From the NCBI RefSeq assembly GCF_018977255.1, contig NW_024704742.1, positions 137,208,001-137,272,000 on the forward strand: DNA of 64,000 nucleotides, read 5' to 3'. The notes beneath the pieces are model-generated. The model was not told the origin of the DNA. It worked only from the letters and a program-made list of their open reading frames with translations, and searched no databases. A program made the translations under genes and the position numbers. This stretch comes from Callorhinchus milii (taxonomy: Eukaryota). Below, one piece after another: positions 2,441 to 29,751 of the stretch (its first letter is position 1; every line of letters begins with the position of its first letter).

Positions 2441-2918
2441 CGGCTGGAATCCTCGCGCCTTCAGTCACTACACCCGAAACTCTGGAACTCTCCCCCTCAA
2501 CCCCTCGCCCCCTCCGTCCCCATCTTCAGGTCACGGACTCGAGTGGCCACCGATTTGTAGACGAGTGAGAGGTTCTTGAAATCGATCGGATCTGTGAGAT
2601 AACAGACACCACGACACAGACACACACAGAGACACACAGACACACACACAGAGACACACAGAGAGACACACACAGAGACACACAGAGACACACAGAGAGA
2701 CACAGAGAGACACACAGACACACAGAGAGACACAGAGAGAGAGAGAGAGTGGCACTGACAGACACACATGTAGAGAGAGACATACACAGAGAGACATACA
2801 CACAGAGAGAGAGAGAGAGAGAGACATACACAAAGTACGAAGTATACGGAGACACACACACACACACAGACATAACCACACAGACAGAGACACACACACA
2901 CAGAGATATAAACGGAGA

Positions 2919-3016
2919 CAAATGCCGTCTCCGTCCATGTTGTGGTTCTGGTAGAAATCACTGCGCTCCTCCTCCTGCTCCTTCATGTCCTCCTCCTGCT
3001 CCAGTTTGAACACGAG
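2919..3016 (-). pseudogene. 3'-truncated copy of the myosin V-derived LVFKLEQEE exon
   Basis: Same sequence up to GGCATTTG, then joined to satellite. Confidence 0.72.
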
Positions 3017-5239
3017 CTGCAACGGGACAGTGAGGGGGGAAATCCCCGTACCCTCCGCTCCCCCAGCGCCGGCCGCGCTTTCAGCCATTATGCCCCGAAA
3101 CTCTGGAACTCTCTCCCCCAACACTTGTCCCCTCCGACCCCATCTTCAGGGGCTCCTCGAGTGGCTGAAGCCCGTGGCCACTGATCAGCACCAGACACAC
3201 AGAGAGAGACACACACACACACACACACACAAACAGACATACAAACACAGACATACAAACACACATTGAAACACACACACACACACACACAGACACACAC
3301 ACACAGACATACAAACGCAGACCTACAGATGCACATACAGACACACACAGACACAAACTCAGAGACAAACACACAGACGTACACACACACACAGACGTAC
3401 ACACATACAAACACAGTGACACACACACACAGACACACGCAGACACGCAGGCGCACACATACAGACCCACACAGATGCACACACACAGACACGCGCGCAA
3501 ACAGACCCACCCCCACAGAGACACACGCACACAGACACACACACACACACACACACCATACAGACACACACACACAGATAAACAACAAAATTACATTTAT
3601 ATCGCGCATTTCACGTCGGGAGAATGTCACAGACACAGCCACAGACATACATACAGACACACTCAGACATATACATATACAGACAGACATACACACACAC
3701 ACACAGACATGCACGCACACACAGACATGCACACACACATAGATGCAGACACACTCACACAGGTGCTCACACACACAGACACGCATACACACCCAGACAG
3801 ACACACACACACACACACAGAGAGACACACACAGAAAGACACACACACAGAGACACACACACACACAGACACACACAGAGACAGAGAATTCCATAAATTC
3901 ACTGCCCTCCGAGCGGAGAAATGTGTTCACCGTACACACATACAAACACAGTGACACACACACAGACGCACAGACACTAACACACAGCGACACACACACA
4001 CACTCACAAAGTCGCACATACACAGAACCACACAGACGCGCAAACACACAGTTGCACACACACACACACACACAAACGTACACAGACACAGCCGTGCGCG
4101 CACACAGATGCGAACCCACAGAGACACAGACACACACACCCACATAGACACATACACACACACACACAACACAGACACACACACACCATACAGACACACA
4201 CACAACAACAACAACAACAAAGTTACATTTATATAGCGCATTTCACGTCGGGAGAATGACATTCACACACAGACATACAGACACACACACACACACGGAC
4301 ACACACACACCATACAGCCACACACACACACATACACACAGAGAAACAGACACACATACACAGACAGATACAGATAGACACACACACGGCTGGAATCCTT
4401 GTGCCTTCAGCCACTACTCCCCGAAACTCACATAGACAGACATCCTCAGACAGACAGACACACACACACACACACACGCAGAAACAGACGCACACAGATA
4501 CACACACACACACTCAGAGAAACACACACAAACACACACACATAGACAGACACAGACACAGATAGACAGAGACGCACACACGGCTGGAATCCTCGCGCCT
4601 CTCCCCCTCAACCCCTCGCCCCCTCCTTCCTCATCTTCAGGTCGTGACTCGAGTGGCTGAAAGCATTGGCACCGATTTGTAGACAAGTGAGAGGTTCTTG
4701 AACTCGATCTGATCTGTGAGATAACAGACACCACGACAGAGACACACAGAGACAGAGAGAGACAGAGACACACAGAGAGACACAGAGACACACAGAGAGA
4801 GACATACACACAGAGAGACACACAGAGAGACACACACACAGACATACACTGAAAGATAGAGACACAGACATACACAGAAAAAGAGAGAGAGACATACACA
4901 AAGTAAGATGTATACGGAGACACACACACACACACACACACAGACGTAACCACACAGACAGAGACATACACACACAGAGATATAAACGGAGACACACACA
5001 CACACAGAAGTACACACACACAGACAGACATCCACACACTCATACACTGATACACACCGAGAGACACACAGAGAGAGACACACACGGCGATATACATACA
5101 GGGACACACACACACGCAGACATACACAGAGAGAGATATACACAGAGAGAGACATTCACACAGAGACGCACAGACAGAGAGAGACACACACACATAAAGG
5201 GAGACATATACCCTCTCACACTGACTCACTCTCTCTTAC

Positions 5240-5528
5240 CAGGTTAATCTGCTGCTGGAGTCTCTCATTACTCTCATTACCTGGAGTCTCTCAAGACTTC
5301 TCTCTTGCTCTCCAGCATTTCTTTCGCTGAAGAATTCCCACTCTCACCAAATTCCTGCACAGAATTCCCACTCTGTTCCGTCCTCACTCAGGTACGTCCT
5401 CGCTCTGCTGGGCTCTCTGCTCGAGGCCTTGGCTTTCAAGCAGAAACTTGTTGATGTAGAACAAGTCCATGAGCATTTGCGATTTTTCTTTGGTCAACAG
5501 TTGGCCAATTCCAGGACAACCCAGAATT
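5240..5528 (-). pseudogene. 289-nt exon-like cassette ending in a diverged myosin V relay segment SNERLQQQINL|gtaag
   Basis: tatccag acceptor and gtaag donor, with internal stops. Other copies at 12165-12330 (internally deleted), 23675-23963 and 27060-27348 (+). Confidence 0.6.
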
Positions 5529-26590: not shown

Positions 26591-27059
26591 AGAGAGACCC
26601 ATCACTGGGCTTGAGATCCATGGATGTCCCTCAACTTGGAGATTGCTGTGTGTGGGATGGGATGTGTGGCCTCTTAACAGAGTCGCTTTCTCACTCCATC
26701 TCTCTCTGTCTCTCTCTCTCTCTCTCTCTCTCTCTCTCACTCTCTTCTCTCTCGCTCTCTCTCTCTCTCTCTCTCACTCTGGCTCTCTCTCTCGCTCTCT
26801 CTCTCTCTTCTGGCTCTCTCTCTGACTCTCTCTCTCGCTCTTCTCCTCTCTCTCTGGCTCTCTCTTCGCTCTCTCTCTCTCTCTCTCTGGCTCCTCTCTC
26901 GCTCTCTCTCTGGTTCTCTCGCTTGAGCTGTCTCTCACTCTCTCTCTATTTCTCTCGCTCACTCTCTCGCCTGAGCTCTCTCTGACTCTCTCTTTCGCTC
27001 TCTCTCCCTCTCTCTCTCTCTTGCACTTTCTGTCGCTCTCTAACACTAACTCTATCCAG

Positions 27060-27348
27060 AATTCTGGGTTGTCCTGGAATTGGCCAACTGTTAACCAAAG
27101 AAAAATCGCAAAGGCGCATGGACTTGTTCAACTTCGACAAGTTACTGCTTGAAAGCCAAGGCCTCGAGCAGAGAGCCCAGCAGAGCGAGGACGTACCTGA
27201 GTGAGGACGGAACAAAGTGGGAATTCTGTGCAGGAATTTGGTGAGAGTGGGAATTCTTCAGCGAAAGAGATGCTGGAGAGCAAGAGAGAAGTCTTGAGAG
27301 ACTCCAGGTAATGAGAGTAATGAGAGACTCCAGCAGCAGATTAACCTG
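27060..27348 (+). pseudogene. Inverted copy of the 289-nt SNERLQQQINL cassette
   Basis: Reverse complement of 5240-5528 and 23675-23963. Confidence 0.6.
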
Positions 27349-29751
27349 GTAAGAGAGAGTGAGTCAGTGTGAGAGGGTATATGTCTCCCTTTATGTGTGT
27401 GTGTCTCTCTGTCTGTGTGTCTCTGTGTGAATGTCTCTCTCTGTATATGTCTCTCTCTGTGTATGTCTGTGTGTGTGTGTCTCTCTCTGTGTGTCTCTCT
27501 GTGTCTCTGTGTGTGTCTCTGTGTGTCTCTGTGTGTGTCTCTGTGTGTCTCTGTGTGTCTCTGTGTCTCTGTGTGTCTCTGTGTGTCTCTGTGTGTCTCT
27601 CTGTGTGTCTCTGTGTCTCTCTGTGTGTCTCTCTGTGTGTCTCTGTGTGTCTCTGTCGTGGTGTCTGTTATCTCACAGATCAGATCGATTTCAAGAACCT
27701 CTCACTTGTCTACAAATCGGTGGCCACTCGAGTCGCGACCTGAAGATGGGGAAGGAGGGGGCGAGGGGTTGAGGGGGAGAGTTCCAGAGTTTCGGGTGTA
27801 GTGGCTGAAGGCACGAGGATTCCAGCCGTGTGTGTGTGTGTGTGTGTGTGTGTATTTTTTTGTGTGTGTGTTTCTGTCTGTGTGTGTGTATGTGTGTGTC
27901 TGTGTGTGTATCTGTCTGGATGTACATGCGTGTGCCTGTTTCTGTGTGTGCGCATCTGTATGTGTATGCGCGTCTGTGTGCATGTGTGTGTGTCTGTCTG
28001 TGTGTGTGTCTGTCTGGGTGTGTATGCGTGTCTGCGTATGTGAGCATCTGCGTGTGTGTGTGCCTGTTTGCGTCTGTGTGTGTCTGCATCTGTGTGTGCA
28101 TGTGTGTGGTGTGTGTGTGTCTGTATGGTGTGTGTGTCTCTGTGTGTGTGTTTATGCACGTCTGTGTCGTGTGTGTGTCTGTGTGCGTGTGTGTCTATCT
28201 GTGTGTGTGTCTGTCTGGGTGCGTATGCGTGTCTGCGTGTGTGAGAGTCTGCGTGTGTGTGTATCTGCATCTGTGTGTATGTCTGTGTGTGCATTCTGTG
28301 TGTGTCTGCATCTTGTTGTGTGTATGGTGTGTGTGTGTCTGTTATGGTATGTGTGTTCTCTGTGTGTGTGTGTGTATGCACGTCTGTGTGCGTGTGTGTG
28401 TGTGTGTGTCTGTGTGTGTGTGTGTGTCTGTATGGTGTGTGTGTCTCTGTGTGTGTGTTTATGCACGTCTGTGTGCGTGTGTGTGTCTGTGTGCGTGTGT
28501 GTCTATCTGTGTGTGTGTCTGTCTGGGTGCGTATGCGTGTCTGCGTGTGTGAGAGTCTGCGTGTGTGTGTATCTGCATCTGTGTGTATGTCTGTGTGTGC
28601 ATGTCTGTGTGTGTCTGCATCTGTGTGTGTATGTGTGTGTGTGTGTGTGTGTCTGTATGGTATGTGTGTCTCTGTGTGTGTGTGTATGCACGTCTGTGTG
28701 CGTGTGTGTGTGTGTCTGTGTGTGTGTGTGTCTATCTGTGTGTGTGTGTCTGTCTGGGTGCGTATGCGTATCTGCTTGTGTGAGAGTCTGCGTGTGTGTG
28801 TGTCTGCATCTGTGTGTATGTCTGTGTGTGTATGTATGTGTGTGTGTGTCTGTATGGTACGTGTGTCTGTGTGTGTGTGTGTGTGCGTGTGTGTGTCTGT
28901 CTGTGTGTGCATGCATGTCTGTGCGTGTATATGTCTGTGTGTCTGAGGTGTCTTCTGAGTGTCTATTGTGTCTGTCTATGTCTGTCTGTGTCTGTGTGTG
29001 TATCTGTCTGGATGTATATGTGTGTGTCTGTCTCTGTGTGTGCGCATCTGTGTGTATGCGCGTCTGTGTGCGTGTGTGTGTGTCTGTCTGTGTGTGTGTA
29101 TGTCTGTGTCTGTATAAGTCTGTGTGTGTCTGTATGTGTATATATATGTCTATGTGTGTGTTTGTGTGTGTGTATGTGTGTGTGTGCGTCTCTGGTGTGT
29201 GCATCTGTGTCTGTGTGTCTGTGTGTGTGACATTCTTCCAACGTGAAATGCGCTATAAAAATGTAATTTTGTTGTTGTTGTTCTGTGTATGTGTGTGTGT
29301 GTGTATGGTGTGTGTGTGTCTGTGTGTGTGTCTGTATGGTGTGTGTGTGTCTGTGTGTGCGCGTGTCTCTGTGGGTGTACGTCTGCGCGCGTCTGTGTGT
29401 GTGCATCTGTGTGTTTGCGGGTCTGTGTGGGTCTGTATGTGTACGACTGTGTGAGTGTGGGTGTGCCTGCGTGTGTGTGTCTGCGAGTGTCTGTGTGTGT
29501 ATCTCTGTGTCTGTAGGTATCTGTGTGTTCTGTGTATGTGTGTCTGTGTGTGTGTCACTGTGTTTGTATGTGTGTCTGTCTGTGTATGTTTGTGTATGTC
29601 TGTGTGTATGTCTGTGTGTGTCTCTGAGTGTGTTTCTGTGTGTGTCTGCATGTGCGTGTGTATGTCTGTGTTTGTATGTCTGTGTGTGTGTGTTTCTGTG
29701 TGTGTGTATATCTGTGTGCGTCTGTTTCTGCATATGTGTGTGTGTGTATGT

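Follow-up and report, generated by a model that had tools for sequence, protein, structure and literature searches.

The array between IER3IP1 and HDHD2

The window analyzed here is a 64,000-nt stretch of the Callorhinchus milii genome (assembly of 992 Mb), from position 137,208,001 to 137,272,000 of contig NW_024704742.1 (hereafter C1), and its left part is occupied by a tandem array in which pieces of a class V myosin gene and transposon-derived cassettes are separated by CA/GA satellite spacers. The array covers window positions 1–29752 on the minus strand (the strand of all array features below unless stated otherwise) and continues leftwards to C1:137,189,207, or about window position -18,800, giving a span of 46.5 kb. 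This left edge lies 1.2 kb from the end of a gene of three short exons that we take to be IER3IP1, and a SKI-family gene (Pfam Ski_Sno_DHD and c-SKI_SMAD_bind) is present on the same flank. On the right, HAD-hydrolase exons begin at 30869 and a minus-strand AAA exon is present; these are presumably HDHD2 and KATNAL2, and the array lies between IER3IP1 and HDHD2. Runs of N occur at 35786–35810 and 39581 of the window, none of them within the C1 array.

The original prediction, made from the window alone, described cassettes of shuffled myosin V exons at 2550–27719 in a fixed order: an ATG module, a 289-nt cassette, a 41-nt cassette, an exon encoding LVFKLEQ, an 82-nt exon, a second 41-nt cassette and a 3' module with a polyadenylation signal. 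Self-comparison of the window recovered this order on the minus strand, along with a partial inverted copy at about 25978–27840. The array is real but larger than described, as it includes the leftward extension and six unplaced contigs (C876, C992, C940, C1134, C1185 and C1359; 141,440 nt) that consist of array modules throughout. Nor is the order invariant: the modules are arranged differently from contig to contig, some units drop cassettes, and, of 17 copies, 12 have a whole 41-nt cassette between the 82-nt exon and the 3' end, two have part of one and three have none. The copy at 12853–7980, put forward as the most complete, lacks the 289-nt cassette and carries instead a deleted 159-nt version without that acceptor.

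A count over the seven contigs (the C1 array and the six unplaced contigs) gave 17 whole 82-nt exons, 27 LVFKLEQ exon starts, 15 ATG modules, 17 3' modules and 54 anchored 41-nt cassettes. The distance from one 82-nt exon to the next is 5.8–16.3 kb, and all lie on one strand per contig, barring the one inverted partial copy. Near-identical matches are confined to C1:137.19–137.24 Mb and the six contigs, for which the assembly gives no chromosomal placement. The array, at least 188 kb within an otherwise conserved gene row, is probably under-assembled. For most non-satellite modules the pairwise diversity between copies (pi) is 0.0005–0.011, and for the 289-nt and 41-nt cassettes it is 0.03–0.04.

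Six of the seven array-bearing contigs are short and unplaced, and some could be a second haplotype, which would suit an artefact in which the assembly multiplied one or two real copies. Such an artefact is most improbable, given the 11 distinct sequences among 13 289-nt cassettes, the 40 among 46 41-nt regions and the module orders, which are unlike between contigs. Unplaced contigs match the C1 array collinearly over 6.3 kb at most (94% identity) and, since module order varies as well, are not simple duplicates of it.

The window also contains a second copy of the block of LVFKLEQ remnant, short interspersed element (SINE) and 82-nt exon at 17773–18505, and a further ATG module with a 289-nt cassette at 23675–24724. 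The inverted copy (25978–27840, plus strand) comprises an ATG module, a 289-nt cassette (27060–27348) and a 41-nt cassette, and faces HDHD2. In the region 24366–27840, two ATG modules point apart with 1.6 kb between them. The inverted copy is aimed at HDHD2 from about 3 kb away, and could give that gene alternative 5' exons.

The parent gene is MYO5B

The 82-nt exon at 8980–9061 matches Pfam Myosin_head with an E-value of 6.5e-6, below the curated cut-off, and its best PDB matches are to myosin Va (E 1.8e-4), while the LVFKLEQ exon on its own had no Pfam match. Among the 40 scored of 2392 candidate genomic matches, the 82-nt exon has a single non-array match, at C1:136,436,009 (83%), and the best non-array match of the LVFKLEQ exon lies 300 nt beyond it (79% nt identity, E 1.2e-13). 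Myosin motor exons follow one another at this locus (Pfam E 7.5e-11 and 8.1e-19), which is one of four class V myosin loci in the genome, the others being a tandem pair on contig C26 and one on C21. The array exon shares 67 of 81 nt with the C1 gene, compared with 58, 58 and 55 for the other three. Next to the C1 gene, at C1:136.49 Mb, are thiolase exons with a best PDB match to 4c2j, a mitochondrial 3-ketoacyl-CoA thiolase, which we presume to reflect the neighborhood of MYO5B and ACAA2. On the sequence matches and this adjacency, the parent is MYO5B, which lies on the strand opposite to the array at a distance of 0.75 Mb. Both the myosin V origin and the MYO5B assignment of the original prediction are therefore upheld, and the parental gene has been located. 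MYO5A and MYO5C were rejected as parents, as the 82-nt exon is closest to the C1 gene, and the tandem pair is on C26. The class V myosins of jawed vertebrates, as outlined in PMC6372264, are myo5a, myo5c, myo5ba and myo5bb, including a tandem pair, and the four loci found here fit the scheme of myo5ba, myo5a/5c and myo5bb given there. The fourth locus, at C21:10,503,109 (79% aa identity in the tested exon), is likely to be myo5bb.

MYO5B-derived segments of the repeat unit

One array unit was compared by BLAST with 300 kb around the parent (coordinates L014 below). Ten pieces of MYO5B were found, 70–92% identical to the parent and all from 6.65 kb of it (L014:663–7312); an extra 270-nt match at C1:136,391,102, which may be a repeat, is excluded from this count. 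Six pieces follow one another in the unit in the order 663–1039, 1261–1389, 3519–3579, 6072–6274, 6322–6421 and 6636–6853 of L014, and four others in the order 3578–3663, 3975–4062, 6009–6266 and 7238–7312. Read from these alignments, the pieces are two collinear passes through the parental segment with deletions, and not a shuffle. Of the 1595 nt derived from MYO5B (weighted identity 76%), 87% are intronic and 210 nt, or 13.2%, are exonic, against 12.5% in the source. Two captured and shuffled exons, as first proposed, do not describe this structure, since the pieces are mostly intron and in parental order, and exon-biased capture was likewise rejected. The accompanying proposal, internal duplication followed by amplification, is supported. 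A processed (retroposed) origin was rejected because the intron flanks are retained.

Of the six exons in the parental segment, three are absent from the unit and one is whole, and three partial pieces are present. The whole exon is the 82-nt exon (8980–9061), from the relay-helix region, in which 9 of 27 residues are changed relative to the parent and both flanking dinucleotides (AG and GT) are kept; residues have changed at positions that are invariant across all four class V paralogs. The LVFKLEQ remnant (9546–9880, acceptor at 9862; HVFKLEQ in the MYO5B exon) retains about 25 codons at 79% nt identity. It is joined by a deletion to downstream intron DNA, with the loss of the parental donor, and reaches a stop after 36 codons. 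Between them, at 9069–9270, is intron with the first ~20 nt of an upstream exon, a third exon start (acceptor at 9207) that had been overlooked, and a tRNA-like SINE in this block occupies the same site as in the parent. The purely intronic pieces include 8311–8385 (L014:7238–7312, 89%), 12866–12924 (3519–3579, 92%) and 7295–7767 (663–1039 and 1261–1389, 73–80%), the last marking the natural start of the next unit. Of the class V myosin motor domain, about 680 Pfam positions long, the array retains about 210 nt of exon. A functional class V myosin was accordingly rejected as a candidate, the array having one whole exon and three exon fragments and no complete motor domain.

Transposon-derived cassettes

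The remaining modules trace largely to mobile elements. The ATG module (12470–12860) has its ATG at 12853, a strong donor GT at 12804 and an X-box-like 14-mer at 12846–12859. The first ~125 nt are those of a repeat family with dispersed copies (73–86% identity; 24 non-array rows, with 40 scored of 115 candidates), and the donor GT was found in one of four fetched copies of that family. Seven frames of the family gave no Pfam match, and it is left unclassified for that reason.

The 289-nt cassette (5240–5528, with the same form at 23675–23963 and 27060–27348) is a composite of the 5' part of a long terminal repeat (LTR), the 5' end of a long interspersed element (LINE) of CR1 type, and the last 10 codons of the MYO5B exon with its donor. 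Its start matches the first 120 nt of the LTR (element positions about 9–120) at 72–77%. The LINE has reverse transcriptase-like frames downstream of the matching 5' end, and its CR1-type label is based on three sub-threshold RVT_1 matches among five frames, together with sequence motifs. The deleted 159-nt form (12164–12322) takes its last 30 nt and its donor from the final third of the 82-nt MYO5B exon. The 41-nt cassette (11832–11872, with a second at 8647–8687 identified by self-comparison) has an AG and a weak donor, and is 78% identical over 46 nt to an L2-like LINE copy at 34572–34617 of the window; the L2 label is based on a motif and on similarity to repeats in the window, the one L2-like frame searched being without a Pfam match.

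The 3' module (7911–8310) includes an acceptor at 8276 and AATAAA at 7983–7988, and corresponds to positions of about 166–595 of an element that ends at 7911. It is 76–79% identical to the members of a family (24 non-array rows among 41) with a length of 590–600 nt and TG...CA-type ends. Most family matches are solo copies, and the element is recognized as an LTR because at two loci another copy follows 4.9 kb downstream, oriented the same way. As the 289-nt cassette starts with positions of about 9–120 and the 3' module has about 166–595, the two are complementary halves of one LTR family, and they flank the exon block on both sides. Family members are 74–84% identical to each other, which is close to the divergence of the MYO5B pieces. 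The two-LTR elements of this family, C33:437170–442749 and C3:37904572–37910236, are 99.6% identical over 3.2 kb, including flanking sequence. A motif resembling a tRNA-Lys primer site follows the LTR in three of eight copies, and the C33 element has seven frames of 90–125 aa and none above 125 aa. The array itself was rejected as an LTR retroelement with a captured gene: only complementary LTR halves are present, no primer site is seen past the LTR end, and the copies are in tandem. A search of window positions 1–31000 against Rfam returned one match, the head of a tRNA-derived SINE at 14010–14072, which passes the tRNA gathering score.

A further proposal, doubtful but compatible with the explanation preferred below, is that a solo LTR received the exon block as an insertion, a capture within a mobile element; otherwise the block lies between two truncated LTR copies that duplication and deletion left behind. 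The LTR pieces are complementary, ordered, co-oriented and bracket the exon block, and no LTR match was obtained when the unit was compared with the 300 kb of the parent locus. Against this, MYO5B pieces are also found outside the LTR halves, and parental segments 3519–3579 (outside) and 3578–3663 (inside) are contiguous; no target-site duplication or primer-binding site is visible, and the copies found are clustered, not dispersed.

Coding potential and constraint

Over 58 pooled codons, the array differs from the parent by 19 non-synonymous and 5 synonymous changes, giving a ratio of non-synonymous to synonymous rates (dN/dS, or omega) of 0.70; this count omits the codons flanking the LVFKLEQ remnant's in-frame gap, and two copies of the 3' end of the 82-nt exon within it are not independent. 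The value is compatible with neutrality (P 0.57), at which level positive selection was also rejected, and with an omega of 0.5 (P 0.31), is borderline for 0.3 (P 0.05) and excludes 0.1 (P 9e-6). Real myosin V paralogs in this genome have proportions of differing non-synonymous sites (pN) of 0.02–0.10 and of synonymous sites (pS) of 0.61–0.90. All 13 extracted cassettes of the 289-nt type have stops in all three frames, and the splice models of the original prediction give open reading frames (ORFs) of 27 and 56 aa from the first ATG. Among 96 splice models, the best ORF is 111 aa, not above a random-phase null (P 0.26). Among copies, pi is 0.001–0.005 in exons and 0.0005–0.009 in non-exon modules, and this equal uniformity points to recent amplification or homogenization rather than constraint. 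Judged from these sequence comparisons, the array is free of a myosin-like protein product. Of the alternatives originally offered, the pseudogene array is the one borne out by the truncation, the stop after 36 codons and the dN/dS.

A young family of microprotein genes, in which the 289-nt cassette is skipped and the ATG module, 41-nt cassette and a myosin remnant are read in frame, is very unlikely. The products would be 66–111 aa long and could include a relay-helix fragment; models of 66 aa with the LVFKLEQ remnant and of 87 aa with the 82-nt exon in the myosin frame do exist, and the 82-nt exon is without a stop or frameshift in 17 of 17 copies. However, of trials with random phases, 35% place both myosin motifs in frame and 72% give an ORF of at least 87 aa, the models rely on the weakest donors and leave out the strongest exon, and the dN/dS is 0.70. 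When the LVFKLEQ frame was used as a protein query, no longer protein was matched at E <= 0.01, a weak test that had only two candidates, neither of them scored.

Splice and polyadenylation signals

The signals of the unit can be assigned to their sources. Three acceptors and two donors were inherited intact from MYO5B, and three further MYO5B sites were deleted: the donors of the LVFKLEQ exon and of the third exon, and the acceptor of the partial copy of the 82-nt exon. Both other acceptors (of the 289-nt cassette and the 3' module) and the polyadenylation signal came from the LTR. In eight genomic LTR copies, two of them near-identical, the AG used by the 289-nt cassette is present in six and that of the 3' acceptor in all eight, with AATAAA in five and ATTAAA in three. 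Each donor sequence carried its own splice or polyadenylation signal, which explains the gene-like look of the unit. Donor strength was scored with an approximate vertebrate donor matrix, applied to all 880 GTs of the unit (median -3.3). The donor proposed for the LVFKLEQ exon, a GT at 9716, is in intron-derived DNA and scores -5.8, and that of the 41-nt cassette, at -3.8, is about background. Intact splice sites despite heavy amino acid change had been singled out in the original prediction; this holds for all five retained MYO5B dinucleotides, and fails for the three deleted sites and the two weak donors. A one-base variant after the LVFKLEQ remnant, present in 3 of 17 copies (compare 9764 with 18364 of the window), makes a moderate donor (score 0.3).

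Several observations weigh against an inert array. The donors of the ATG module and the two from MYO5B score 5.1–6.0, and are three of the top four among the 880 GTs. The survival of five of five retained MYO5B dinucleotides has a probability of 0.06–0.16 under neutral decay. Within 25 nt upstream of acceptors there are two deletion edges, at 11 and 23 nt, against 0.23 expected (P 0.02); this is the best hint of selection, and a post hoc one. The AG and GT are kept in 54 of 54 anchored 41-nt cassettes, a retention that is not significant alone because about 10 of the 41 columns vary. The modules are all in one orientation with the polyadenylation signal at the end, and an X-box-like site arose at a junction, the window having seven matches against 3.4 expected, and four of the seven being array copies. 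With about 99% identity between them, the copies should be counted as a single event.

These features would be expected of a functional, spliced long non-coding RNA (lncRNA) gene amplified as a family, a reading that we consider rather unlikely, if far from negligible. Transcription would start near the X-box/CCAAT site or in the LTR of the previous unit, proceed through the strong donors of the ATG module and of both exons derived from MYO5B, and end at the LTR AATAAA; the product, antisense to the IER3IP1–HDHD2 pair, would most likely be an RNA of the germ line or a precursor of small RNAs. LncRNAs built from transposon-donated splice, start and polyadenylation sites are known, and the array, known here from its sequence, resembles them in its LTR-derived acceptor and polyadenylation signal and its repeat-derived first exon. 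The strong donors at the ends of cassettes, the intact inherited acceptors with deletion edges close by, and the single orientation with a terminal LTR signal favor such a gene, as does the account in PMC5687341, where human macrosatellites are described as often giving non-coding transcripts. Inheritance from the source sequences, however, accounts for the signals. The LVFKLEQ exon is without a good donor, exons are no better conserved among copies than spacers, and an identity of about 80% to MYO5B over short stretches would be poor for silencing the parent.

Sequence reads offered leads that were not used as evidence. Of the sampled words, a fraction of 0.50–0.52 was found in each of four sequencing runs of unknown kind. 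The fractions were 0.21, 0.19, 0.16, 0.14, 0.10, 0.06, 0.03, 0.02 and 0.01 in nine runs from the same organism guessed to be RNA, and 0.06 and 0.05 in two runs of other origin, also guessed to be RNA. On the same scale, the exons of the original prediction make up 0.13 of the 31-mers, and all non-satellite DNA 0.42.

Origin and nature of the array

The best explanation, to which we give a probability of roughly two in three, is that the array is a young, probably non-functional macrosatellite, the unit of which is a partial, unprocessed pseudogene of MYO5B interspersed with transposon pieces. About 6.6 kb of the MYO5B motor-domain region would have been copied as DNA, in inverted orientation, into the IER3IP1–HDHD2 gap 0.75 Mb away; the source, position and intron content of the copy are read from the alignments, and the route is presumed. 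The copied segment would then have been duplicated internally, mostly deleted, invaded by LINE, SINE and LTR pieces, and have decayed by about 20–25% without protein constraint, the anatomy and rates being those measured above and the order of events tentative. Much later, a unit of roughly 10 kb would have been amplified or homogenized to at least 17 copies in varied higher-order arrangements. High copy identity is observed, and the mechanism was most likely unequal exchange or slippage in the long CA/GA tracts and L2 pieces. Any transcription would probably be incidental, from LTR or repeat promoters.

A more elaborate account is unlikely. It holds that MYO5B exon edges and transposon signals produced a de novo spliced gene with an RFX-type promoter created at a junction and with an internal acceptor and the polyadenylation end that both came from one LTR, and that selection then raised its copy number about 20-fold or more, giving a lineage-specific germ-line family of non-coding or microprotein RNAs; its inverted terminal copy may also feed alternative 5' exons to HDHD2.

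The array has the exon and intron homology, identifiable parent (MYO5B), disabled sequence and freedom from protein constraint of an unprocessed partial pseudogene, and the multi-kb head-to-tail units and high identity between units of a macrosatellite. Human macrosatellites such as RNU2, TAF11-Like, RS447 and D4Z4 contain embedded LTRs and microsatellites (PMC5687341), and the array is like those described there in its multi-kb head-to-tail units, its LTR and SINE pieces and its embedded microsatellite tracts. In those elements, a regular unit of 1.4–6.1 kb contains an intact gene or ORF, whereas the array unit is larger and irregular and has only broken exon and intron pieces. Chimeric pseudogenes that arise by proximal segmental duplication (PMC13122177) offer a second comparison; like the cases outlined there, the array is an intron-containing part-copy of a nearby gene, rearranged and fused to foreign DNA. 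Unlike them, its partners are transposon fragments and not a second gene, no parental promoter was copied, and tandem amplification followed. A description of the array was not among the matches listed in searches of full-text, non-subscription literature.

If inert, the array is a worked example of how a gene-like order of cassettes can arise without selection, from an intron-containing duplicate and transposon pieces, and a warning that signals shared by 99%-identical copies are one observation. If it is transcribed and spliced, it would represent a traceable vertebrate gene birth in which each signal can be assigned to a known donor sequence.

Other features of the region

A pair of thiolase exons (Pfam positions 158–208 and 209–246, about 0.8 kb apart) occurs with near-identical scores at more than 10 dispersed places, including C1:32.00–32.53 Mb, C2:21,977,190, C4:15,262,906, C4:24,647,428, C9:14,355,497 and C3:37,138,035, and looks like a gene fragment carried by a mobile element. 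Two further repeats were seen in the window. At 59239–59709 there is a 37/78-bp tandem repeat, the unit of which has a CACGTG E-box and a GC-box-like stretch, and at 32593–33628 a 1-kb satellite of GGCTG-type pentamers lies within an HDHD2 intron.

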